DNA of 64,000 bases. Origin: Coriobacteriales bacterium. Lineage in GTDB: Bacteria; Actinomycetota; Coriobacteriia; Coriobacteriales; UBA8131. Where the stretch lies: contig JAITRZ010000014.1 in NCBI GenBank assembly GCA_031288185.1, positions 17,091-81,090 on the forward strand, given 5' to 3'. The notes under the pieces were generated by a model. It was not told the DNA's origin and did not search any database. It saw only the letters and a program-made list of their open reading frames with translations. The translations under genes were made by a program, and so were the position numbers. This document shows, piece by piece, positions 1,551-36,617 of this stretch (position 1 is its first letter; each line of letters begins with the position of its first letter).

Positions 1551-2837
1551 ATGTCTGAAACTAATAATAAACTAAATGAGGGCGAATTGAAATCCGGGAA
1601 CACATGGGCCTGGCTTATTGTTGTTGGCCTGGGCTTTCTGGGCGGAGCAGGCCTTGTCACCATACTGGTCAACGCAGGAAACTTCATTCCTCATATTTGC
1701 GAAGAGCTACAGATAGACCCGGGACAACTGACACTGTGGATAACCTGCTATGCGGTTTTCATGGCCATATCCCAGCTTTATGTAGGACGCCTTTGGCCAA
1801 AGGTAAACACCAGGCTGCTTTTGCTGGCATCATTCCTGATCTCTATAGCAGCCATGGCATTGATGGGAACCTATACCGAAGCATGGCAATTCTGGATTTC
1901 GGGGGCGGTCATAGGACTTGCTGGTGGTGTGTACTTTATGGTGGCGGCTCCAATTCTCGTGACCAACTGGTTTGCGGAGCGAGTTGGCCTTGCTCTTGGG
2001 GTGGTTGGTATCATCAGCGGTATCCTTGCGGCAATACTCAGCCCGATAGATGCGATGATTGTCGCTGCATTTGGATGGCGGACAGCTTATTTCATTGTTG
2101 CGATTATCGCTTGTGCACTCGCTTTACCTTGGATATTGTTCGTATTTGTATATGATCCAAGCAAAAAGGGCATGAGACCCTTTGGCTGGGAGCCAGGGAT
2201 GCAAAATATTACCGCCGGATCAGAGAAAGCAGCCGGTATCCCCGCTAATAAAGCCTTGTTCTCTGTGCCCTTTATCTGCATCTTTCTGGCGGCAGGCTCA
2301 TTTGCCCTTTATGGCGGCTTTCAAAACCTTTGGGGCTTTGCTGCAGAGGAATGGAACTTTGACCCTCTGTTTACCGCGATGATGATTTCTGTTACCAGCC
2401 TGTTCATGCTCTGCGGCCCAATTATCGGTTTGGTTATAGATAAAATCGGGCCCTATAAGACCTCCTTTGGCATCATCATCATTCAGCTACTTGCCTCATT
2501 GGGTTTGCTATTCTTCCACCAAAGCGAGGCTATAGTGCTGGTGCTGGTATTCTTCTTTGCCTTCCAAGGAGGTATCGTAGGTACAACTGCCCCTCTTTTG
2601 ATACGGGAGACCTTCGGTGCCAAGGACTACACAAAAATCCTTTCCTATACGCAAATGGGCATTGGTTTGATAGGTGGTTTCTCTGCTCCCGCCGTGTCCT
2701 TCTTCTACATGGCATACGGCAATTTCGATGCCGCGCTCGTCTTTGGCGCGGCCCTTGCCGTCTTTGGGTTTATCTGCGTAGTGCTCGCTTATGTGACGAA
2801 AAACGCCACCATCAGGGCCAAGTGGCAAGAAAACTGA
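1551..2837 (+). CDS. MFS transporter (OFA/MCT-like)
   Basis: About 12 hydrophobic segments with VTNWFAERVGLALG and IDKIG loop motifs; AAGGAGG RBS (start GTG 1548 or ATG 1551). Confidence 0.9.
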   Translation: MSETNNKLNEGELKSGNTWAWLIVVGLGFLGGAGLVTILVNAGNFIPHICEELQIDPGQLTLWITCYAVFMAISQLYVGRLWPKVNTRLLLLASFLISIAAMALMGTYTEAWQFWISGAVIGLAGGVYFMVAAPILVTNWFAERVGLALGVVGIISGILAAILSPIDAMIVAAFGWRTAYFIVAIIACALALPWILFVFVYDPSKKGMRPFGWEPGMQNITAGSEKAAGIPANKALFSVPFICIFLAAGSFALYGGFQNLWGFAAEEWNFDPLFTAMMISVTSLFMLCGPIIGLVIDKIGPYKTSFGIIIIQLLASLGLLFFHQSEAIVLVLVFFFAFQGGIVGTTAPLLIRETFGAKDYTKILSYTQMGIGLIGGFSAPAVSFFYMAYGNFDAALVFGAALAVFGFICVVLAYVTKNATIRAKWQEN

Positions 2838-2838
2838 A

Positions 2839-4212
2839 ATGGATACGGATACGGAAGTCGGCGGTTCGGGCGAGCGCGGCAATTCAAGCAGCCCGGGCAA
2901 TGCGACGGACAACACGAGTCCCCCATCTGGCAACAAGCAGACCAGTTTCTGGATATGGCTCCAGGTAGTGGGAATGGGCGTGTTAGGTGTTGCTGGCATC
3001 CAAACCATACTTGCCAACTCCGGGAATTTCTTTGCAGCAGTCTGTGCTCCTGTTGAGGCAGGCGGAATGGGCTTTGCCGTCAATGAGTTTGCGCTTTGGC
3101 TGACATGCACGACCTATTGCATGGCATTCTCCCAACTCTACGTCGGCCGCCTGTGGCTGAAGCTGAAGACCCCCCTGCTGCTTACCGGTTCTTTTCTGGT
3201 GTGCATGATAGCCTTTGCGCTCATGGGGACATATTCAGAACTTTGGCAATGGTACTTTTCTGGAATCGTCATAGGCCTGTCGGGCGGCTTCTTCTTCATG
3301 GTAGGGGCGCCGATCATCGTGACAAACTGGTTTGCAAAACGCAGTGCCTTTGCCTTGGGAGTTGTTACCATCATTGGCGCTTTGGGCGCAGCAATACTCT
3401 CCCTTGTACAGGCGACCATCATTGCTGCCTTTGGATGGCGCATGGCTTATCTCCTTGTTGCGGCCATTTCGGTAGTGATAGCCCTCCCCTTTACCTTGTT
3501 TGTTGTCCGCTTCAAGCCTGAGGATAAGGGATTGAAGCCTTACGGCTGGGAAACAGGCATGGAAACCATCACTGCCGGAGACAAGAGGGCCAGCGGTACC
3601 TCTGTCAAACGGGGACTGCTTTCGATACCCTTTGCGGCGCTTTTTGTTGCTGTTGGGTTCTGTGCCCTGTTTGGCGGCTATCAGAACCTCTGGCCGCTTG
3701 CCGCTGAGGAATGGGGCTACGGGGTACAGTTTGGCTCGCTGATGATCTCGACAACGGCTCTGTTTGGCCTGATTGCACCGCTGCTTGGCACTTTGATAGA
3801 CCGGTTGGGGGCTTATCCGTCGGTATTCATCATACTGGGTGCGCAGTTGCTGTCAGGGTTGGGCATCCTGTTCTTCCATGCAAACCAGGCGGTATTATTG
3901 ATAGCGATCTTCTTTTTTGCCGATCAGATGACCGTAGTGGGAACGCTCGTGCCATTAGTTATCAGAAAAATGTTTGGCGCGAGAAATTACACGAAGATCC
4001 TTGGTTACGCCCAGCTTGGCGTGGGCCTGATAGGCGGGCTTTCTGCGCCTATTGTCTCTACTTTGATGGTCACATTTAACACGTTCAATGCCACCTTGGT
4101 ATTTGCGGCGTTTCTTTCCGTGGGCAGCGCCTTGTTCTTTTTAATAGCCTTTGTCACAAGAAGGACTCTTAAGTGGGAAGGCAGGAGCGAAGAGCAGAAT
4201 GAAATGGCTTGA
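2839..4212 (+). CDS. MFS transporter, tandem paralog of the preceding gene
   Basis: Shares SQLYVGRLW, APIxVTNWF, AAFGWR, FGGYQNLW/YGGFQNLW and YTKILxY motifs with 1551-2837. Confidence 0.9.
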   Translation: MDTDTEVGGSGERGNSSSPGNATDNTSPPSGNKQTSFWIWLQVVGMGVLGVAGIQTILANSGNFFAAVCAPVEAGGMGFAVNEFALWLTCTTYCMAFSQLYVGRLWLKLKTPLLLTGSFLVCMIAFALMGTYSELWQWYFSGIVIGLSGGFFFMVGAPIIVTNWFAKRSAFALGVVTIIGALGAAILSLVQATIIAAFGWRMAYLLVAAISVVIALPFTLFVVRFKPEDKGLKPYGWETGMETITAGDKRASGTSVKRGLLSIPFAALFVAVGFCALFGGYQNLWPLAAEEWGYGVQFGSLMISTTALFGLIAPLLGTLIDRLGAYPSVFIILGAQLLSGLGILFFHANQAVLLIAIFFFADQMTVVGTLVPLVIRKMFGARNYTKILGYAQLGVGLIGGLSAPIVSTLMVTFNTFNATLVFAAFLSVGSALFFLIAFVTRRTLKWEGRSEEQNEMA

Positions 4213-26664: not shown

Positions 26665-27486
26665 ATGTCGAAAAAGGCAATGGTGATCGACCTGACACGC
26701 TGCGCGGGATGTTATGCCTGTGTGGTGGCCTGCCAGATGCAGAACAACACCCGGCCGGGTGTTGCCTGGAACCAGGTGGAGCGCTGCGAGTGGGGTGACT
26801 ATCCCGAGGCCGGACGCTCGTATCTGCCGCACGCGTGCATGCAGTGCGAAGCGGCTTCGTGTGTGGAAGCCTGTCCCACAGGCGCAAGTTATACGCGTGA
26901 AGACGGTATTACCTTGGTAAACTATGATGAGTGTATCTGTTGCGAACAGTGCGTACACGCCTGTCCCTACGGCGCTCGCCGTGTCAATACCGCCAACGCC
27001 TATTGGTTTGAGGCTGCCGTACCCACACCCTATGAGGGCTATGGCATCCAACGAACCGATGTAGTAGAAAAATGTATTTTTTGTAACGAGTTGGTAGATG
27101 CCGGCGGTCAGCCAGCCTGTGTGGCTAACTGTCCTGGTGGAGCGCGTGTCTTTGGCGACATCGATGACATGGAAAGCGCGGTGGCCCAAAAGGCTGCTGG
27201 GGCGCTTCGCATCGATAAAACCAGCTTTTATTATGTACCCGTAAAAGGAATGCCGGACGAGATAATTACAGGAAAGGTTCTTGCGGCCAAACCTGCCCCG
27301 CGTAGCGGGCGTAAGCCTGCGGCTGATGCCACCCCGGCGCTGGTGGGGGCTGGGGTTGTGGCCGCTGCCGCCGTAGGTGCCGCAGTGGGTTATGGCGCGC
27401 GAGGGCTGCGCGAGGGCGGCAGGCGTGATGCAGCTGGTACAAGCGAAATTCAGGATACTGCCGGCAAGGGTGGTGAGCAATCATGA
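26665..27486 (+). CDS. DmsB-like 4x[4Fe-4S] subunit with C-terminal hydrophobic anchor
   Basis: CAGCYACVVAC, CMQCEAASCVEACP, CICCEQCVHACP, CIFC...CVANCP; AAAGGAG RBS. Confidence 0.92.
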   Translation: MSKKAMVIDLTRCAGCYACVVACQMQNNTRPGVAWNQVERCEWGDYPEAGRSYLPHACMQCEAASCVEACPTGASYTREDGITLVNYDECICCEQCVHACPYGARRVNTANAYWFEAAVPTPYEGYGIQRTDVVEKCIFCNELVDAGGQPACVANCPGGARVFGDIDDMESAVAQKAAGALRIDKTSFYYVPVKGMPDEIITGKVLAAKPAPRSGRKPAADATPALVGAGVVAAAAVGAAVGYGARGLREGGRRDAAGTSEIQDTAGKGGEQS

Positions 27487-29723
27487 CCGCCTTATCAAGA
27501 CGCAATTTTGTGAAAGGAGCCGCCTGCGCGGTTGCGGCTGTGGCTGGCGCTTCCCTTGGTTTTAGATCCGGAGGCATTGACTTTTATTATCCCCAGGAAG
27601 CCTTTGCGGATGAGAATTCACCTATAGAGCGGCGCTACAGCTACTGCGATATGTGTAATCATGTACCCAAATGCGGCATCGTCGCCTCAGTGCGTGAGGA
27701 TAAGGTAATCCGTGTTGAAAGTCGCGACAAGTATCCTTCTACACCACTGTGCGCAAAGGGCATCGCTTCACTGCAGGAACTCTATGATCCACATCGTCTG
27801 CTTACTCCCAAAATCCGTACCAACGCCAAGGGGGGTCCGGCGGAATGGAAGGATATAACCTGGGACGAGGCCTACAGCATACTTGCTGAAAGGCTCAACC
27901 GCGTTAAGGCGCAGCACGGCGCGGATTCCGTCCTCTTCTTTTGCGGCGATCCAAAAGAACCGCGCGGTGCCATGCAGCGTCTGGCTACACTCTTTGGCTC
28001 GTCAAGCTATGGTACAGAAAGTAGCGTTTGCGCGGCGGCCAGCTGGATGTGCGCGCAGTTGGTCTTTGGTCAAAACTCGATGGGTGAAAACCCTTCTGAT
28101 GCTTCTGCCTCCTGTCTGATATGGAGCCTGAACCCCGCATGGTCGCAGCCCAACCGTTATGGCGTGCTCATGAAGCAGAAGGAACGGGGGTGTAAGTTTG
28201 TGGTAGTAGACCCGCGCGTTACGCCTACGGTCACCGGCATGGCTGACATCCACCTTCAACTGCGCCCCGGCTCAGACGGTGCTCTGGCAGCGGGTTTTAT
28301 CAATCAACTCATCGAGCAGGATCTCATTGATCACAACTTTGTGGACAACTGGACCCACGGCTTTGAGGAGCTAAAAGCCTATGTGGCCGCGTATACGCCT
28401 CAGAAAGTAGAAGAGATAACCTGGGTGCCGGCTGACAGGCTGATTGCCGCAGCCAAACTGATAGGGGAGAACAAGCCTGGCACTTTGATTACCTCCTCCA
28501 AGGGAGGCTGCCACACCACCAATGTGGGACACTTTCAGCGTGCAGTGTTTATGATTCCGGCCTTGTTGGGCAACCTGGATGTTACCGGCGGACTGCCGCT
28601 TGGTCCCGGTTTGCCCTTTGACTATGCGGCCTCCACTAAGGGATTTCAGTTGGAGGATGTCTATGAGGCCGAGGGATTTCAACAGCGCCGCTATGATCGT
28701 GAAGATTTTCCGGTCTGGGCTCGTTATTACAAGATGATGCAGACGGTCAAACTACCGGAGTACGTTGATGAGGGCAAGATTCGCGCCGGTGTTTTGTTGG
28801 GTGTCAACTCAATGATGTGGCCCAACACGCCGCTGTATCAAAAGGCCATTGCGGATTTGGAGTTTTCTGTAGCCATCGACTATTATCTGCGTCCGGTGAC
28901 TCACGATCTGGTTGACATGGTGCTGCCGGCGGCCATGTGTTATGAACGAAGCGCCGCTCTGGCAATTTTTGGCCGTAAGATTTTTCTGCGTGAGCCGGTT
29001 GTTACCCCACGGGGAGAAGCCCGCGAGGACTGGCGCATCATCCTGGAAATTGGGTGCGCGCTTGGATACGCCGAGCAATGCTTTAACGGTGATGTTGATG
29101 CAGCATTAGAAGAACTGCTGCGTACCACCAATCTTGGCATCACTCTGGCCGACCTGCGAGCCAACCCCCAGGGATATGACGTACCTGGCCCAGCCGCAGC
29201 CCAGCGTAAGTATGAGACCGGTGGCCTGCGCAACGATAAGCAGCCAGGTTTTAACACGCCCTCCGGCAAGGTTGAATTGGTAAGCACGGTGCTTGAGGAC
29301 ATGAACTTTGTGGGCTTGCCTGTCTATGAAGAACCGCTGCATAGTCCCTTTACCGCTGATGCCAAAGACTACCCGCTTGTCTTAAACACCGGCTCGCGCG
29401 TACCTTACTATACCCACTCAAAACTGCGCGATCTGCCCTGGCTCAACCAGTTCATGCCCAATCCGGTTGTGCGTATCTCTTCCAAGGATGCCTCTGAACG
29501 CGGTTTGGTCGAAGGTGAATTGGCGCGTGTCTACAACGCACAGGGCGAGGTTGAGATGCAGGTAGAGATAACCAACATGGTATTGCCCGGCGTTGTTGAC
29601 ATCTTTCATGGTTGGGAGCGTGCCGATATTAATCTCCTTACCACGCGCGACTTTGACCCCATCAGCGGTTTTCCGCCGTTTAGTAATGGGCTCTGTCAGG
29701 TTGCCAGCCTACAGGCCAGGTGA
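27483..29723 (+). CDS. Tat-exported molybdopterin oxidoreductase catalytic subunit
   Basis: SRRNFVK Tat motif, CDMCNHVPKC...LCAKG Fe-S motif, VVDPR, LRPGSDGALA, TPSGKVEL, YPLVLNTG. Confidence 0.93.
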   Translation: MTALSRRNFVKGAACAVAAVAGASLGFRSGGIDFYYPQEAFADENSPIERRYSYCDMCNHVPKCGIVASVREDKVIRVESRDKYPSTPLCAKGIASLQELYDPHRLLTPKIRTNAKGGPAEWKDITWDEAYSILAERLNRVKAQHGADSVLFFCGDPKEPRGAMQRLATLFGSSSYGTESSVCAAASWMCAQLVFGQNSMGENPSDASASCLIWSLNPAWSQPNRYGVLMKQKERGCKFVVVDPRVTPTVTGMADIHLQLRPGSDGALAAGFINQLIEQDLIDHNFVDNWTHGFEELKAYVAAYTPQKVEEITWVPADRLIAAAKLIGENKPGTLITSSKGGCHTTNVGHFQRAVFMIPALLGNLDVTGGLPLGPGLPFDYAASTKGFQLEDVYEAEGFQQRRYDREDFPVWARYYKMMQTVKLPEYVDEGKIRAGVLLGVNSMMWPNTPLYQKAIADLEFSVAIDYYLRPVTHDLVDMVLPAAMCYERSAALAIFGRKIFLREPVVTPRGEAREDWRIILEIGCALGYAEQCFNGDVDAALEELLRTTNLGITLADLRANPQGYDVPGPAAAQRKYETGGLRNDKQPGFNTPSGKVELVSTVLEDMNFVGLPVYEEPLHSPFTADAKDYPLVLNTGSRVPYYTHSKLRDLPWLNQFMPNPVVRISSKDASERGLVEGELARVYNAQGEVEMQVEITNMVLPGVVDIFHGWERADINLLTTRDFDPISGFPPFSNGLCQVASLQAR

Positions 29724-29728
29724 GGTTC

Positions 29729-30514
29729 ATGAGCAAGGATACCAAAAGACCCAATCTGGATGACGCTCACGAGCTGGACATGCGTGACGCAGGTTTGGAT
29801 GATGCTCACAAGCCGGACATGCTGTCGCGCGCCAACCGGCGCGCGCGAATTGGCATGGTTGCGGCAATCGCGGCGGTGCTTGTGATAGCGGTAGCCTGCG
29901 GTGGTTGGGTTTGGCATGAGGATCCCAGTTTCTGTGGTGCCATCTGCCATGAACCGATGGACACCTATGTATCCGGGTATTATGCTAGCCCCGGACAGGT
30001 CACTACCGATGCCTATGGTGGCGACGCTTCGGCCATGCTTGTGACAACGCATGCCTCCGAGGGTGTCAGCTGCCTGCAGTGCCACCCACCTGATATTGCC
30101 CAGCAAATAGGTGAATTAAGCACCTGGCTCTCTGGTAACTATGACTATCCGCTGGTAGAAAAGGATGTGAAGCAGCTGCTTGTTGACGCGCATCAACCCG
30201 TTCAGGGCAATGGATCAGAATTCTGTCTGGTGGAAGGCTGCCATGTGGACGCAGACGGCAATCCGCTCACTGAAGAAAGCCTAAGAAGCACCCTTGCGGG
30301 AAAGCCAGGATATACGTATCGCAACCCGCATGTGGCACCTTCTGGCTCACCCCACGGCCTTTTGGAATATACCTGTTCAGATTGCCATAAGTCACATCGT
30401 GCCTCTACCAACGCCTGTACGCGCTGTCACTATGACCTGGTACCCCTCCTGCCCGACGGCTGGGAACCCTGGGCAATCAATGCGGGGGTTTTGTCTCAGG
30501 TACATCTTCAGTAA
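29729..30514 (+). CDS. Membrane-anchored multiheme cytochrome c
   Basis: N-terminal TM helix; heme motifs CGAICH, CLQCH, CLVEGCH, CSDCH, CTRCH. Confidence 0.88.
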   Translation: MSKDTKRPNLDDAHELDMRDAGLDDAHKPDMLSRANRRARIGMVAAIAAVLVIAVACGGWVWHEDPSFCGAICHEPMDTYVSGYYASPGQVTTDAYGGDASAMLVTTHASEGVSCLQCHPPDIAQQIGELSTWLSGNYDYPLVEKDVKQLLVDAHQPVQGNGSEFCLVEGCHVDADGNPLTEESLRSTLAGKPGYTYRNPHVAPSGSPHGLLEYTCSDCHKSHRASTNACTRCHYDLVPLLPDGWEPWAINAGVLSQVHLQ

Positions 30515-30791
30515 CAAGAGGTTTTGAGCGACAGCAAGGCGCTCTCTCGCCGTCACTCTGAACAAAGCGCAGCAAGTCCGGCAGTCCCTCCATGCGCTCT
30601 GCCGGACAGCCTTACCAACGCGCTCTTTAGAGTGAAGAAGTAGGAGCAGGCACAGCCCAGATAAAGCTGATGGTATGGGGATTATGAACGCAGCTCAGGC
30701 GACCTTGGTCGCCTGAGCCCACCACCGTAGTGGCTCAACATGAAATTTGGCCGAATCTGGTCACAAAACATAGTCGAAACATCAGCGCCAC

Positions 30792-30820
30792 TTGACATTT
30801 GAGTCCTCATTGTGCACTAT
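30792..30820 (+). promoter_or_regulatory. Sigma70-type promoter of the T-box leader
   Basis: TTGACA (30792-30797), 17-bp spacer, CACTAT (30815-30820). Confidence 0.7.
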
Positions 30821-30827
30821 AGGTGCC

Positions 30828-31325
30828 AACGCGTTGACGGAGAGAAGGATGGCGTATCCTGTTTGGGGCGAATGTCCCGTCCAGAGAGTCCGCGGTTGCT
30901 GTGAGCGGATAGCAGAACGACATGTATGTACACTCCTGAGCGGATCACCTGAAAGCCACCTACCTTTTGGGCGCCTGTGCTTGCCATGAGCAGGCCGGTG
31001 GTGTCCAGGCGGCCACTTGCCAGGGCGCTGAGGCACCCAAACCTTAATGGCGCGTAGCGATTGTTGAGGGGAGGCGGCCGTCAGGGCAGTGCGTTGCTAG
31101 CAACAGAGGTATCGGCAACATCCAGGTGGCAGATGCCGCCTGCGAGCAATGAGCAAGTAGGGTGATACGGGTGCCCCCCGTTATAGGGCTGGGATTAGGA
31201 GCCTGACCCGGGCTTTGATCCGATGAGAGGCGGCTTGGCCGCAACCGGGGTGGTACCGCGGAAGTCTTGAGAGCTTTCGTCCCCGGGCAAGTGTTTTGCC
31301 CGGAGAGGAAGGCTTTTTTCTTTTC
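30828..31325 (+). ncRNA. T-box riboswitch leader, transcription-attenuation type, probable Tyr (UAC) specifier
   Basis: Stem I with AGAGAG and GCTGTGA distal motifs, closing TAC-A-CTCC (TAC 30929-30931); stem II GAAA/AGTA; CCGTTA F-box; T-box GGGTGGTACCGCG (31248-31260) with TCGTCCC; terminator hairpin followed by a U-tract. Confidence 0.92.
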
Positions 31326-31397
31326 CTCCCGAGCGGTCATGTAACGCTCCGTCGGCCCTGGTCCGAGGCCGGGAGCACAGAGAATGGGAGGCCCCCT

Positions 31398-32846
31398 ATG
31401 GACACAGTGAAGTTAAGCAGTGGTGAGTTTGTGCCTTTGGAAATGCATAAGGCGCGCATTGTCCAGCGCATTACTCTGGAGCCCATCGAACAACGCAAGC
31501 GGGCGATAGAAGAAGCAGGCTTTAATACTTTTTTGCTTAAAAACCGGCATGTCTTTCTCGATATGCTCACCGATAGCGGCGTCAATGCCATGAGCATTGA
31601 GCAGCAGGCAGCCATGCTGCTGGCTGACGATAGCTATGCGGGCTCTGAGACCTATTACCGTCTGGAGCAGGCACTCATGGATTTTTTTGGTACACGCTAT
31701 TTTTTGCCAACCCATCAGGGTCGCGCCGCAGAAAACGTTTTAGCTAACAGCTTTATACAACCCGGCTTGGTAGCACTGATGAATTTTCACTTTACTACTA
31801 CCAAAGCCCTCGTCACTCTGCGGGGAGGTTCAGTTCTAGAACTGGTTTCAGAGGCTGGCCTGGAGATTGAGAGCGATCTGCCCTTCAAGGGTGACTTTGA
31901 CCTCGCGAGCCTGAACGCTGAGATTGAACGTTTGGGCACGGACAACATTGCCTTTGTGCGTGCCGAAGCTGGTACCAACCTTATCGGCGGTCAACCAATT
32001 TCCATGGGCAACATGCGAGCGGTCTCAGCTGTCTGTAAAGAAAAGGGCCTGCTTTCGGTGCTGGATGCCAGCCTATTGGCAGACAACCTCTACTTTATCA
32101 AAACCCGCGAAGCCGGCTTTGCTGATGTTGACCTGGCCACTATCACCCGCGAACTGGGCCAGCTCTTCGATATTATCTACTTTAGCGCCCGCAAATTGGG
32201 TTGTGTGCGCGGTGGTGGTATCGTCACCAATAACGAGGAGCTCTACAAACAGATGCGTGGTTTTGTGCCGCTGTTTGAGGGGTTTCTGACGTATGGTGGC
32301 ATGTCGGTGCGCGAGATGGAAGCGCTGGCAGTGGGCCTGCGCGAAACCCTGGATTTTGATGTCATCAGCCAGACGCCGATTTTTGTCAGGGCACTTACCG
32401 AGGAGTTAACCAGGAAGGGTGTGCCCACGGTGACACCGGCAGGCGGTCTGGGCTGCCATATAAACGCTTTCAAGTTTCTACCCCATATTAAGCAGAGCCA
32501 CTACCCGGCTGGAGCCCTGGCGGCGGCGGTGTTCCTGGCCGGCGGTATTCGTGGCATGGAGCGCGGCACCCTTTCAGAACAGCGCAATCCCGATGGCAGT
32601 GAGCCGTTGGCCGAGATGGAATTGCTGCGTCTGGCCTTTCCCAAAAGGGTATTTTCGCTTTCCCAGGTAAAGTACATTGCCGATCGAGTGGCCTGGCTGT
32701 TTGCCAACCGCGAACTGGTGGGAGGGCTGCGCTTTGTGGAAGAGCCACCAACACTCCGCTTTTTCTTTGGTCGCCTGGAACCCCTGGGAAACTGGCCGCA
32801 GCAATTGGTTGATGCCTTCCGTTGCGACTTTGGCGACAGCCTGTGA
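31398..32846 (+). CDS. PLP beta-eliminating lyase of the tryptophanase/tyrosine phenol-lyase family, with TPL-type specificity residues
   Basis: DMLTDSG, DDSYAGS, PTHQGRAAE, FSARK (PLP Lys), EGFLTYGG. NFHFTTT, GMERG and LRFF match TPL T124/R381/F448 rather than TnaA D/I/H. Confidence 0.9.
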   Translation: MDTVKLSSGEFVPLEMHKARIVQRITLEPIEQRKRAIEEAGFNTFLLKNRHVFLDMLTDSGVNAMSIEQQAAMLLADDSYAGSETYYRLEQALMDFFGTRYFLPTHQGRAAENVLANSFIQPGLVALMNFHFTTTKALVTLRGGSVLELVSEAGLEIESDLPFKGDFDLASLNAEIERLGTDNIAFVRAEAGTNLIGGQPISMGNMRAVSAVCKEKGLLSVLDASLLADNLYFIKTREAGFADVDLATITRELGQLFDIIYFSARKLGCVRGGGIVTNNEELYKQMRGFVPLFEGFLTYGGMSVREMEALAVGLRETLDFDVISQTPIFVRALTEELTRKGVPTVTPAGGLGCHINAFKFLPHIKQSHYPAGALAAAVFLAGGIRGMERGTLSEQRNPDGSEPLAEMELLRLAFPKRVFSLSQVKYIADRVAWLFANRELVGGLRFVEEPPTLRFFFGRLEPLGNWPQQLVDAFRCDFGDSL

Positions 32847-33147
32847 GGCCACCGGGTGCCTATTTTGCTTATTATATTAGTATTTCACCAACCTCGTTCC
32901 AACTGCTGGTGAGACTGCTGGCCTGATGTATTGCCCCCTCTTGCCCGTTTTGTTGTAGAATGGCAAGCCGTGCTGGTTCTGTAGACCTCCCTGGGATTTC
33001 CTGAAACATCTAACAGACAGCATATCGACCGATCTCCGCGCTATCAGGTACAGGTTTTTTGAAGAGGACTGTACCGGGGAGATGTACGACCGACCCCCGT
33101 GCCAGCAAACGCGGGGATCCAGACAGACCTGAAGGCAGGTGATAGTT

Positions 33148-33765
33148 ATGAGCAAGGCAGACGATGTCAAAAACGCTACCCCGGATAGAACGCCTCCGGG
33201 CAGTATTGGCGCTAAAATAACAGAATTGCGGGAAGCCTTGCTGTTGTCGCCTGAGGATCTGGCTGAGCGTTGCGGTTGTGCGGTGCAGGTTATTACGGAT
33301 CTGGAGGGCGGACAATTGGCGCCTTCACTGGCTCCGCTTATCAAGATTACGCGAGCTTTGGGTGTGCGTCTGGGCACCCTGCTTGATGACGATGAAAACC
33401 TGGGACCGGTGCTCACCAGGGCCAACGCCTACAAGGGTTCTACGCGCCTGAAGGGCCTGGAGACACACAGCGACGCAGGTGAGCTCAGTTTCTTTTCGCT
33501 GGCCGAAGGTAAGGCTGCCCGTCACATGGAGCCCTTTTTTATCAGTCTGGAACCCTCCCAGGACCTGGAACACAGCCTCAGCGCCCATGAGGGTGAGGAA
33601 TGGCTGTTTGCTCTGGAAGGTTCGCTTGAGATAGAGTACGGAAAACAACTCTTCATCCTTGAACCCGGCGATAGCATTTACTATGATTCCATCGTGCCCC
33701 ATCAGGTTCGCTCCCATAACGGCCAGAGCGCTCGCTTTGTGGCCTGTGTCTACACGCCGGTGTAG
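33148..33765 (+). CDS. XRE-family HTH regulator with C-terminal cupin
   Basis: [10 protein letters not shown]...EDLAERCG...[11 protein letters not shown]; [21 protein letters not shown]; start 33139 or 33148. Confidence 0.9.
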
Positions 33766-35486: not shown

Positions 35487-36617
35487 CTAATCCTTGGCTA
35501 TCTCGCGTTCCAGTAGATGGATCTTGATAAGGTCAGGATGTATCACCGCCTCCTGTGGCTGACCAAGGGCGGCAAGCAGGACAACGCGCAGGCCATCCCG
35601 CGCGGCGGCGGCGTTGACCAGCATCTCCTCAAACAGCACGTCAACGTCAAACGGCTCAAGAAGAGGCGGCAGGTTGAGACTGGTCAGTAGGGATTCCTGT
35701 TGGGTTGTGAGCTCCCTGGAGGCGTTGATAACCTCCTCGGCCAGCCTGGCACAGTAACGCATACCCTCTGCCAGGGCGCGACCAGAGGCAACGGGCGCAG
35801 TGGGTGCGGCAGCCGACACGGCTAGTGCCACAGCCTCCAGGGCGTGCGCGAACGGCCGGCCATAGCTCTGGTAGGCACATGTTTCTGTAGCGTTGGCGTT
35901 GGTGGTAAGGGCGAGCGCTCGAAAAGCGAGGGTTTGAACTATGGCCTCCTGAAGGCTGGCTTCATCATGCGCCACCAGCCCCTCGACGTTATTGTGTAAC
36001 CACTCCAGCGAACCCCCGCCTTCCAGCAGGGCCGTTTGGGCAATTTCCGCAAAGCCGTTTTCCCAATCGGCCCTTGAGTTCGCGGCCAGCGATTGGAGGT
36101 CACAGGTCGCGTACACCGGCAAGCTGTCAGTCACAATCCGGTCGCTGGCAGTTCCCATATCAAGGGCCGCATGGTTTGCCAGGGTGTGGCCCACCATGGC
36201 GGCCAGCGTCACCGGTACACGCACCAGGGGGAGACCGCCTTGGTAGACTGCTGATGCAAATCCTGCCGCGTCCAACACCGCCTCTCCACCCAGAGCGACA
36301 ATCAGGGTGCCGCGCCTAGTATCTAAAAGCGTTATTTGTTTAAGCAATTTAAGAACCGCCGGAGCGGACTTGGCCGCGCGGCCAGACGGCAGGGTTATCT
36401 CTGCGACGGTAAACGCTGCCTTTGACAAACCGGCCCTGGCTTTTTGCAGGGATGCGGGAGAAATAAGCGCGTCGGTTACTAAAATCGCGTTGTCTGTGGT
36501 ACTGGTAAGGAGGGTATCGCGCAGGTGCACCCCCAGGTTTACCAACAGGCGATTGCCCACACGTATATCAAAACGGTGCTTTTCATCAATGATCGCGCGC
36601 AGGCGACGGGTTCCCAT
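35487..36617 (-). CDS. 3-dehydroquinate synthase-like protein with degenerate motifs
   Basis: ALGGEAVLDAAGFASAVYQGGLPLVRVPVTL aligns to the AroB GGGV.GD.AGF....Y.RG....PTTL motif; VDSSVGGK, EVIK and NLGHT motifs are altered. Confidence 0.75.
   Translation of the reverse strand: MGTRRLRAIIDEKHRFDIRVGNRLLVNLGVHLRDTLLTSTTDNAILVTDALISPASLQKARAGLSKAAFTVAEITLPSGRAAKSAPAVLKLLKQITLLDTRRGTLIVALGGEAVLDAAGFASAVYQGGLPLVRVPVTLAAMVGHTLANHAALDMGTASDRIVTDSLPVYATCDLQSLAANSRADWENGFAEIAQTALLEGGGSLEWLHNNVEGLVAHDEASLQEAIVQTLAFRALALTTNANATETCAYQSYGRPFAHALEAVALAVSAAAPTAPVASGRALAEGMRYCARLAEEVINASRELTTQQESLLTSLNLPPLLEPFDVDVLFEEMLVNAAAARDGLRVVLLAALGQPQEAVIHPDLIKIHLLEREIAKD

Follow-up and report, generated by a model that had tools for sequence, protein, structure and literature searches.

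The leader of Bacillus subtilis tyrS is the founding tyrosine T-box, and it comprises a stem I with the specifier UAC, stem II, the IIA/B element and stem III, followed by an antiterminator, whose UGGU bulge fits the discriminator base A73 of tRNA-Tyr, and a competing terminator. In the established T-box mechanism, as set out in the available text of PMC7778990, uncharged tRNA stabilises the antiterminator. According to the available part of PMC2494555, the Bacillus cereus group carries a tyrosine T-box before phenylalanine 4-hydroxylase, an alternative route to tyrosine, and in Dehalococcoides T-boxes are linked to trpE and to a trpB-like gene. Tyrosine phenol-lyase (TPL), as described in the accessible sections of PMC10170061, catalyses a reversible reaction and also beta-replacement with serine, and the canonical tpl gene is induced by tyrosine through TyrR. 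Here we describe a tyrosine T-box that precedes a single gene for a pyridoxal phosphate (PLP)-dependent lyase of the TPL/tryptophanase family. It lies in a 64,000-nt stretch of DNA from a Coriobacteriales bacterium (GCA_031288185.1, contig JAITRZ010000014.1; genome label G000), which we call the window and to which all coordinates without a genome or locus label refer. The reading that we favour, and in which we have moderate confidence, is that leader and gene form a phenol-to-tyrosine salvage system induced by tyrosine starvation.

The leader shares with that of tyrS all the parts just listed, and differs from it in that it regulates a TPL/tryptophanase-family lyase instead of a tRNA synthetase, has some 200 nt inserted in stem II and resides in a member of the Coriobacteriia. 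To judge from its sequence, it is a classical transcription-attenuating T-box specific for tRNA-Tyr, placed before a single gene. Its parts and the gene that follows are:

30792-30820, + strand: promoter-like site, with the -35 hexamer TTGACA (30792-30797), a 17-nt spacer and the -10 hexamer CACTAT (30815-30820)
30825-31287, + strand: T-box leader covered by the full RF00230 model, with stem I, stem II, IIA/B, stem III and antiterminator
30831-30941, + strand: stem I, including the specifier loop and, distally, the elbow-binding motifs AGAGA / GGUUGCUG, after the Rfam consensus alignment
30929-30932, + strand: specifier UAC (30929-30931) and conserved purine A (30932) in the Rfam register, then CUCC closing on GGAG
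30960-31160, + strand: lineage-specific stem II loop insertion, about 200 nt long, left unaligned by RF00230
31243-31261, + strand: conserved T-box sequence AACCGGGGUGGUACCGCGG, with the UGGU bulge (31251-31254) complementary to the ACCA of tRNA-Tyr
31269-31325, + strand: intrinsic terminator, made of a hairpin (31269-31317) followed by a U-run, with the 5' arm of the hairpin overlapping the antiterminator 3' arm
31386-31391, + strand: ribosome-binding site GGGAGG, 6 nt upstream of the ATG
31398-32846, + strand: PLP-dependent lyase gene, translated as 482 aa, with the PLP lysine K266 (codon 32193-32195)

In an Rfam scan by E-value, RF00230 matched 30825-31287 over model positions 1-219 of 219 (65.9 bits, E 6.6e-14; E 3.2e-14 for the lyase leader over the whole genome), and the full T-box leader of the initial annotation is thus recovered at full length by a covariance model. 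The score lies below the Rfam gathering score of 93, and at gathering scores the window yielded three tRNAs and no T-box. The roughly 200 nt left unaligned in the stem II loop plausibly account for the low score; orthologous leaders without a large insertion score up to 127.2 bits on RF00230. In stem I, the codon with its purine, the closing helix and both distal motifs were all found. The specifier that had been read as a tyrosine codon is UAC in the Rfam register as well, and two-codon families prefer a C-ending specifier in the available part of TBDB. The base helix of stem I covaries among orthologous leaders, being GGAG/CUCC in the window, AGAG/CUCU at locus L015 and UGAG/CUCA at L030 and L038 (loci carry L numbers and genomes G numbers), with a closing pair that is G-C in the window and at L028, A-U at L015 and U-A at L030 and L038. 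The T-box core GGGGUGGUACCGCGG (31247-31261) places a UGGN bulge in an antiterminator that competes with the terminator.

The terminator that had been annotated after the T-box folds at -31.7 kcal/mol (z -5.84), and none of 200 shuffled sequences was as stable. For the antiterminator, which has a 7-nt bulge, the fold energy is -20 kcal/mol, and it shares positions 31276-31284 with the terminator; a weaker antiterminator facing a stronger terminator is the usual arrangement where the antiterminator needs the help of tRNA. The promoter TTGACA-17-CACTAT is present as originally annotated, and both hexamers are invariant in comparison with L003, whose lyase is 83% identical, while their flanks differ. 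Conservation between G000 and L003 extends to stem I, the T-box sequence and the terminator, but not to the stem II insertion. A fold of the whole 501-nt leader gave z -2.66 and a minimum-energy structure without T-box architecture, which was not used, and stem I folded alone was no better than its shuffles (z +0.88).

The stem II insertion was also considered as a separate RNA element; no Rfam match of note was found within its approximately 200 nt, it is not conserved with L003, and it was treated as a variable expansion. The leader of L003 (approximately 2590-2850) has a 106-nt stem II insertion and a further insertion after IIA/B, and these cannot be aligned with the insertion in the window though the gene is 83% identical.

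The tRNA complement of the genome (1.81 Mb in 73 contigs, 88.87% complete) fits this assignment. Its single tRNA-Tyr (contig C69) has the anticodon GUA (GTA in the DNA) and A73, and so matches both specifier and discriminator, and its single tRNA-Trp has the anticodon CCA and G73. Only two T-boxes were matched in the genome, namely the lyase leader and, outside the window, a tryptophan T-box on the - strand (G000:C71:13060-13306, equal to L001 1501-1747) with specifier UGG, bulge UGGC and a score of 91.8 bits. The gene after the latter is TrpB2-like (NF009057, 652.1 bits against a cut-off of 366) and is predicted to encode an indole-salvage enzyme. Within this one genome the variable bulge base therefore follows the discriminator, U with A73 for tyrosine and C with G73 for tryptophan, which agrees with the earlier argument that UGGU is meant for A73 of tRNA-Tyr and that tRNA-Trp, with G73, would need UGGC. 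The same pair of switches is seen in the related genome G302, which has exactly two T-boxes, one before the lyase and the other, UGG/UGGC, before a TrpB2-like gene 87% identical to that of G000. The Clostridia genome G511 has tandem tyrosine T-boxes at the lyase and also a TrpB2-like gene whose leader, judged by eye, resembles a T-box with UGG as its specifier.

The lyase belongs to the Beta_elim_lyase family (PF01212, 155.3 bits), and its K266 and D223 align with K257 and D214 of TPL, in keeping with the fold and its PLP lysine. Among its matches in the structure database, eleven TPL sequences rank first (E 4.7e-109 to 1.3e-103), whereas tryptophanases start at 1.7e-90; identity to the solved TPLs is about 45%, as estimated from the printed alignments. 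With the TPLs of Citrobacter freundii and Erwinia herbicola (PDB 2ez1, 1tpl, 1c7g) it shares the PLP lysine, Y71, F123, T124, M379, R381, R404, F448 and F449 (TPL numbering). The three residues named as TPL-diagnostic in the initial annotation, T124, R381 and F448, are indeed present in the motifs NFHFTTT, GMERG and LRFF, which align to the corresponding positions of TPLs. The accessible sections of PMC10170061 assign R381 the role of general base and Y71 that of general acid, have T124 fix the phenol hydroxyl and F448/F449 contact the ring, and describe the role of K257 and a catalytically important potassium ion.

We compared these positions in a 48-row alignment of 34 subfamily sequences, nine TPLs labelled by models and five tryptophanase-type sequences. 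The labels came from ten related loci scanned with NCBIfam, among which L005, L009, L010, L019 and L020 pass the TPL equivalog (755.8-793.8 bits), L007 passes TnaA, and L006, L024 and L027 are tryptophanase-like. Positions 124, 379, 381 and 448 are T, M, R and F in all nine TPL rows and D, V/C, I and H in all five tryptophanase-type rows, where D, I and H are presumably D137, I396 and H463 of Escherichia coli tryptophanase. The subfamily has T, M, R and F in 33 of 34 rows, the outlier being L004 with G at 124 and N at 448, and Y71, R100, F123, N185, D214, K257, R404 and F449 are kept throughout the alignment. A search of protein collections with 8000 scored candidates gave the same picture among its best 120, which we took as the subfamily set: these proteins are 66-83% identical to the query and nearly all 482 aa long, those with names are called tryptophanase, and all 120 keep Y71, F123, N185, D214, K257, M379, R381, F448, F449 and T124. 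They come from metagenome-assembled genomes of Coriobacteriia, Oscillospiraceae, Lachnospiraceae, Peptococcaceae, Defluviitaleaceae, Christensenellales and Treponema.

In a quick maximum-likelihood tree, rooted at the midpoint only, the 34 subfamily rows are set apart from the 14 rows of TPLs and tryptophanases with an SH-aLRT support of 100 and on long branches (1.11 + 1.61 substitutions per column), and the TPL (97) and tryptophanase-type (97) groups neighbour each other. The phylogeny that had been proposed as a check against TPL and TnaA thus leaves the lyase outside both groups. From its sequence relationships, the lyase is best placed in a third clade within the TPL/tryptophanase family; its specificity residues resemble those of TPL, but it is not a canonical TPL, so that the original notion of a TPL-type enzyme holds for the residues that handle tyrosine and phenol, but not for its membership of the TPL group proper.

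The pairing of T-box and lyase recurs in other genomes. Seven of 301 Coriobacteriia genomes sampled (G000 included) carry an ortholog at 60% identity or more, and L003, in the Coriobacteriales genome G302, came from a single-protein scan of genome contigs (eight loci, two of them orthologs). The Clostridia sample had 27 genomes with an ortholog among 399 scored, which left 26 loci, since L054 is without upstream sequence, and scanning metagenomes with an alignment of 20 sequences recovered 80 ortholog loci, 72 of them with at least 350 nt upstream. T-boxes were found upstream at three of the eight Coriobacteriia loci (the window; L003/G302, 68.3 bits; L015/G043, 84.3 bits) and at three of the 26 Clostridia loci (L028/G307, 83.4 bits; L030/G469, 105.4 bits; and L038/G511, where two T-boxes of 94.4 and 126.2 bits stand in tandem). 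By the core pattern, at least 21 of the 72 metagenome loci have a T-box core 94-241 nt before the start codon, and Rfam confirmed all 21 of those T-boxes (71.5-127.2 bits). The pairing is therefore present at at least 27 ortholog loci (six genomes of two classes and 21 metagenome contigs) with 28 T-boxes. All 11 printed alignments show the specifier UAC and then an A, as do, by a specifier-context pattern, all 17 further loci, with one extra, unrelated pattern hit each at L089 and L093. UAC-A is the only triplet invariant over all 28 T-boxes, and the bulge is UGGU in every one.

The Coriobacteriia lyases nest among Clostridia sequences in the tree, and the leaders of L015 and L028 look alike. 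These observations suggest a joint transfer of gene and T-box into a class that otherwise has few transcriptional T-boxes; an early survey, in its available text, reported no classical T-boxes in Actinobacteria (PMC1262725).

Under the proposed mechanism, uncharged tRNA-Tyr (GUA, A73) would pair through its anticodon with the specifier UAC and through its free ACCA end with the UGGU bulge, and would thereby hold the antiterminator (-20 kcal/mol) against the terminator (-31.7 kcal/mol), so that the lyase gene is transcribed. The direction of the switch claimed at the outset, on when tRNA-Tyr is uncharged, is what a tyrosine-specific leader and the established mechanism predict, and it is the inverse of canonical tpl: the present gene appears wired for induction by lack of tyrosine. 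Because it would be wrong to induce a tyrosine-destroying enzyme when tRNA-Tyr is uncharged, the lyase, which has all the phenol-ring residues of TPL, would supply tyrosine in the direction of carbon-carbon bond formation, either from phenol, pyruvate and ammonium (reverse elimination) or from phenol and serine (beta-replacement). Together with the tryptophan T-box and its TrpB2-like gene, this would give a gut member of the Coriobacteriia with a small genome two starvation-induced salvage routes, phenol to tyrosine and indole to tryptophan. From the features above we infer function of the switch in vivo, action on phenol and tyrosine, net flux towards tyrosine and the co-substrates named.

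Two parallels make tyrosine salvage a natural reading, namely TrpB2 under a tryptophan T-box and the tyrosine T-box before phenylalanine hydroxylase. As in the former, a starvation-sensing T-box precedes a PLP enzyme that joins a free aromatic ring to a three-carbon unit; TrpB, however, is a dedicated synthase without a history as a lyase, whereas the family of the present enzyme is known for degradation. TrpB is also of a different PLP fold type. The B. cereus system shares a tyrosine T-box that drives an alternative, non-shikimate last step to tyrosine, and differs in enzyme and chemistry, with phenylalanine instead of phenol as the precursor.

Several observations weigh against a salvage function, and they concern the leader, the biosynthetic pathways, the enzyme and the distribution of the T-box. 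As for the leader, a simple consensus scan of 30400-33200 listed neither promoter nor terminator. The promoter went unlisted because CACTAT agrees with TATAAT at only three of six positions; our calls of both elements rest on fold energy and conservation, not on that scan.

The initial annotation also held the route to be independent of the shikimate pathway, which is consistent with the gene content of G000, where PDH_N (prephenate/arogenate dehydrogenase, tyrA), prephenate dehydratase (PDT, pheA), chorismate synthase (aroC), TrpA and IGPS (trpC) were not found by family searches that each matched in 14 of 14 control genomes. In G302, PDH_N, PDT and IGPS were not found either, and PDH_N is missing among T-box genomes from G000, G302 and G043, the last being only 59% complete. 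The absences in G000 are soft, because the genome is 88.87% complete (11% of marker genes are missing) and has a divergent aroA-like gene (G000:C59:18275-19804, equal to L143 376-1905, - strand; 155.9 bits against 287.25; not MurA) and, in the window at 35487-36617 on the - strand, a divergent aroB-like gene (129.9 bits against 305). Chorismate synthase is present in G302 and G043, and G302 has a near-cut-off aroA as well. Nor is independence general: PDH_N occurs in 28 of 34 lyase-bearing genomes, three of the six T-box genomes (G307, G469 and G511) among them. A general replacement of tyrA by the lyase was rejected on this count, and the suggested survey of T-box/lyase co-occurrence against tyrA thus returned the pairing itself at 27 loci, but no regular lack of tyrA alongside it.

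As for the enzyme, canonical TPL has high Km values in the reverse reaction, given in the accessible sections of PMC10170061 as 12 mM for pyruvate, 20 mM for ammonia and 1.1 mM for phenol. The lyase fails the TPL equivalog TIGR02618 (408 bits against 720.7), as it does the TnaA equivalogs NF053783 (367.4 against 750) and TIGR02617 (325.6 against 825.8), and the only NCBIfam model that it passes is NF009709 (558.8 bits, above cut-off), a subfamily model named tryptophanase. Four changes relative to TPL, E69D, R217L, K256R and N262R, are invariant in all 120 subfamily proteins (the best 120 of 8000) and lie near the cofactor/cation site; TPL and tryptophanase rows have E, R, K and N at these columns, where the subfamily has D, L, R and R. 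In TPL these residues make up the cofactor and cation environment. Given these changes, the chemistry of the clade could differ from that of TPL, and we speculate that they are where the clade departs from canonical TPL kinetics.

This bears on the alternative that survives best, although we regard it as unlikely: a genuine T-box would control an enzyme whose physiological reaction is something other than phenol to tyrosine. The clade may, for instance, act on other beta-substituted amino acids or on other phenolic or aromatic nucleophiles, and could give a tyrosine-related product or spare tyrosine indirectly. A separate clade, divided from TPL plus tryptophanase by 1.11 + 1.61 substitutions per column, scores below all three equivalog cut-offs, the four invariant changes and a structure database without any member of the clade (the best matches being TPLs at E 4.7e-109 and an estimated identity of about 45%) are all compatible with such an enzyme. 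Set against it, all residues tied to the phenol ring and to catalysis in the TPL literature are invariant, and the tyrosine specificity of 28 of 28 T-boxes ties the product to tyrosine supply.

The distribution of the T-box bears on a second alternative. Most orthologs are without one: by Rfam in upstream sequence of up to 1500 nt, none was found at five Coriobacteriia loci and at 23 of 26 Clostridia loci, and 51 of 72 metagenome loci lack the core T-box pattern in a search by pattern only. Sixteen of the 26 Clostridia loci with upstream sequence (L031-L037, L039-L046 and L048) have a second, non-T-box leader, which gave no Rfam match and in which a promoter is followed by (G)GUAG triplets, grouped in two clusters and repeating every 8 nt, and then by an intrinsic terminator (e.g., at L036, 389-370 nt before the ATG). 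The strict GUAG pattern occurs once per genome in five of five genomes, always at the lyase, and not in the reversed control; the loose pattern GTAKNNNNGTAKNNNNGTAG has counts near those of the reversed control, except for the lyase sites and one symporter site. A HutP-family gene is found in 13 of 16 GUAG-leader genomes, none of six T-box genomes and one of 12 others, groups that are related and hence not independent. According to the available text of PMC2425495, HutP of Bacillus recognises a pair of sites, each made up of three XAG triplets, and in the presence of histidine keeps transcription from terminating. The HutP-like gene (144-145 aa; L145/G412, L149/G672 and L146-L148) is not beside hut genes and adjoins a gene for cytidylate kinase. 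At two of the five HutP-like loci examined, this kinase carries a fused type I chorismate mutase, which hints at a link to aromatic amino acids. In G427, a near-identical GUAG site (L153 1501-1520) stands behind a TTGAC-17-TACAAT promoter and before genes for a symporter small accessory protein and a sodium:solute symporter, and is a possible second member of a GUAG regulon.

If GUAG control is antitermination induced by tyrosine, the lyase would be catabolic in those lineages; with phenol as the ligand, or with binding that leads to termination, such control would fit the logic of the T-box. The second alternative is accordingly that the enzyme is an ordinary catabolic TPL (tyrosine to phenol, pyruvate and ammonia) and the T-box a relic, leaky or a minor brake, which we consider improbable. 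Such a role would suit the physiology of canonical TPL, which degrades tyrosine and is induced by it, the many orthologs without a T-box, and the HutP-like sites at 16 loci with a HutP-family protein in 13 of the 16 genomes, antitermination in Bacillus being induced by the substrate. The symporter behind the second GUAG site of G427 would suit it too, as the arrangement recalls the pairing of tnaA with tnaB. Yet inducing a tyrosine-degrading enzyme at uncharged tRNA-Tyr would be self-defeating. Moreover, G000 and G302 both retain an intact T-box, terminator and promoter with conserved sequence, whereas the insertion has diverged, the retention of the pairing at 27 loci, with a tandem T-box at L038, argues for selection, and none of the four canonical TPL loci scanned (L018-L021) has a T-box. 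That the enzyme is a tryptophanase making indole from tryptophan, as public annotation of its orthologs and the name of the one NCBIfam model it passes have it, is very improbable, since the D, I and H of tryptophanase-type rows are replaced in it by T, R and F, its score is better on the TPL model (408 bits) than on the TnaA models (367.4 and 325.6), it is closer to solved TPLs (E 4.7e-109) than to solved tryptophanases (1.7e-90), and it stands under a tyrosine specifier at all 27 loci while the tryptophan T-box of the genome is elsewhere.

Tyrosine salvage from phenol consequently remains our preferred reading. Only tentatively do we extend it to the proposal that the clade is a natural tyrosine synthase using environmental phenol, in which E69D, R217L, K256R and N262R may bias the enzyme towards synthesis or free it from a need for monovalent cations, that G000 and G302 possess, with TrpB2, a two-switch kit for feeding on the phenol and indole of their neighbours, and that other Clostridia may hold the enzyme under an undescribed GUAG control read by a HutP-family protein whose gene lies beside chorismate mutase.

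With regard to gene context, 78 flanking open reading frames from 33 loci contained no family with more than four occurrences, and the lyase gene appears to stand alone, without conserved neighbours. An arrangement confined to one Coriobacteriia family is found at L012, L013, L014 and L016, where a lyase gene without a T-box lies between genes for a XerC-like recombinase and an ABC transporter whose binding protein is TrpX-like (NF041285, 321.5 bits, cut-off 390). Directly upstream of the T-box promoter, the window encodes a 4Fe-4S protein, a molybdopterin oxidoreductase and a Cgr1-like cytochrome c (182.8 bits against 340) at 26665-30514 on the + strand. Locus L135 has a second T-box with the specifier CAC (His) after the lyase gene (2711-3040), and L073 has a pyrrolysine insertion element (PYLIS_2, 209-308, 64.6 bits) upstream of its T-box.

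The leader is an ordinary tyrosine T-box in its mechanism; what is new is the controlled gene and the implication for a clade annotated as tryptophanase. We found no paper linking T-boxes with TPL or tryptophanase in a literature search that left some large T-box surveys, supplements and TBDB outside its range, and the terms tryptophanase, phenol, tnaA and lyase do not occur in the available text of the T-box survey PMC2494555. A comparable enzyme is an engineered 'tyrosine synthase' evolved from TrpB, which makes tyrosine or analogues from phenols and serine (Almhjell et al. 2024; available part of PMC13578870). In evolved TPLs, by the same account (Almhjell et al. 2024, via PMC13578870), better synthesis was traded against more breakdown of the product. 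That synthase is a laboratory product of another fold family, whereas the present clade would, if our inference holds, be natural.

T-boxes are reliable reporters of the purpose of a gene, as they switch on supply genes for one amino acid, and 28 tyrosine T-boxes before one clade of a family known only for degradation point to a different physiological role for that clade. If this is true, the clade would be a natural counterpart to the laboratory-evolved tyrosine synthases and would add a shikimate-independent last step to tyrosine. Its enzymes would possibly be biased towards carbon-carbon bond formation, which would be of use for tyrosine analogues, and its presence would alter the prediction of auxotrophy and of phenol and indole cross-feeding from gut metagenomes.

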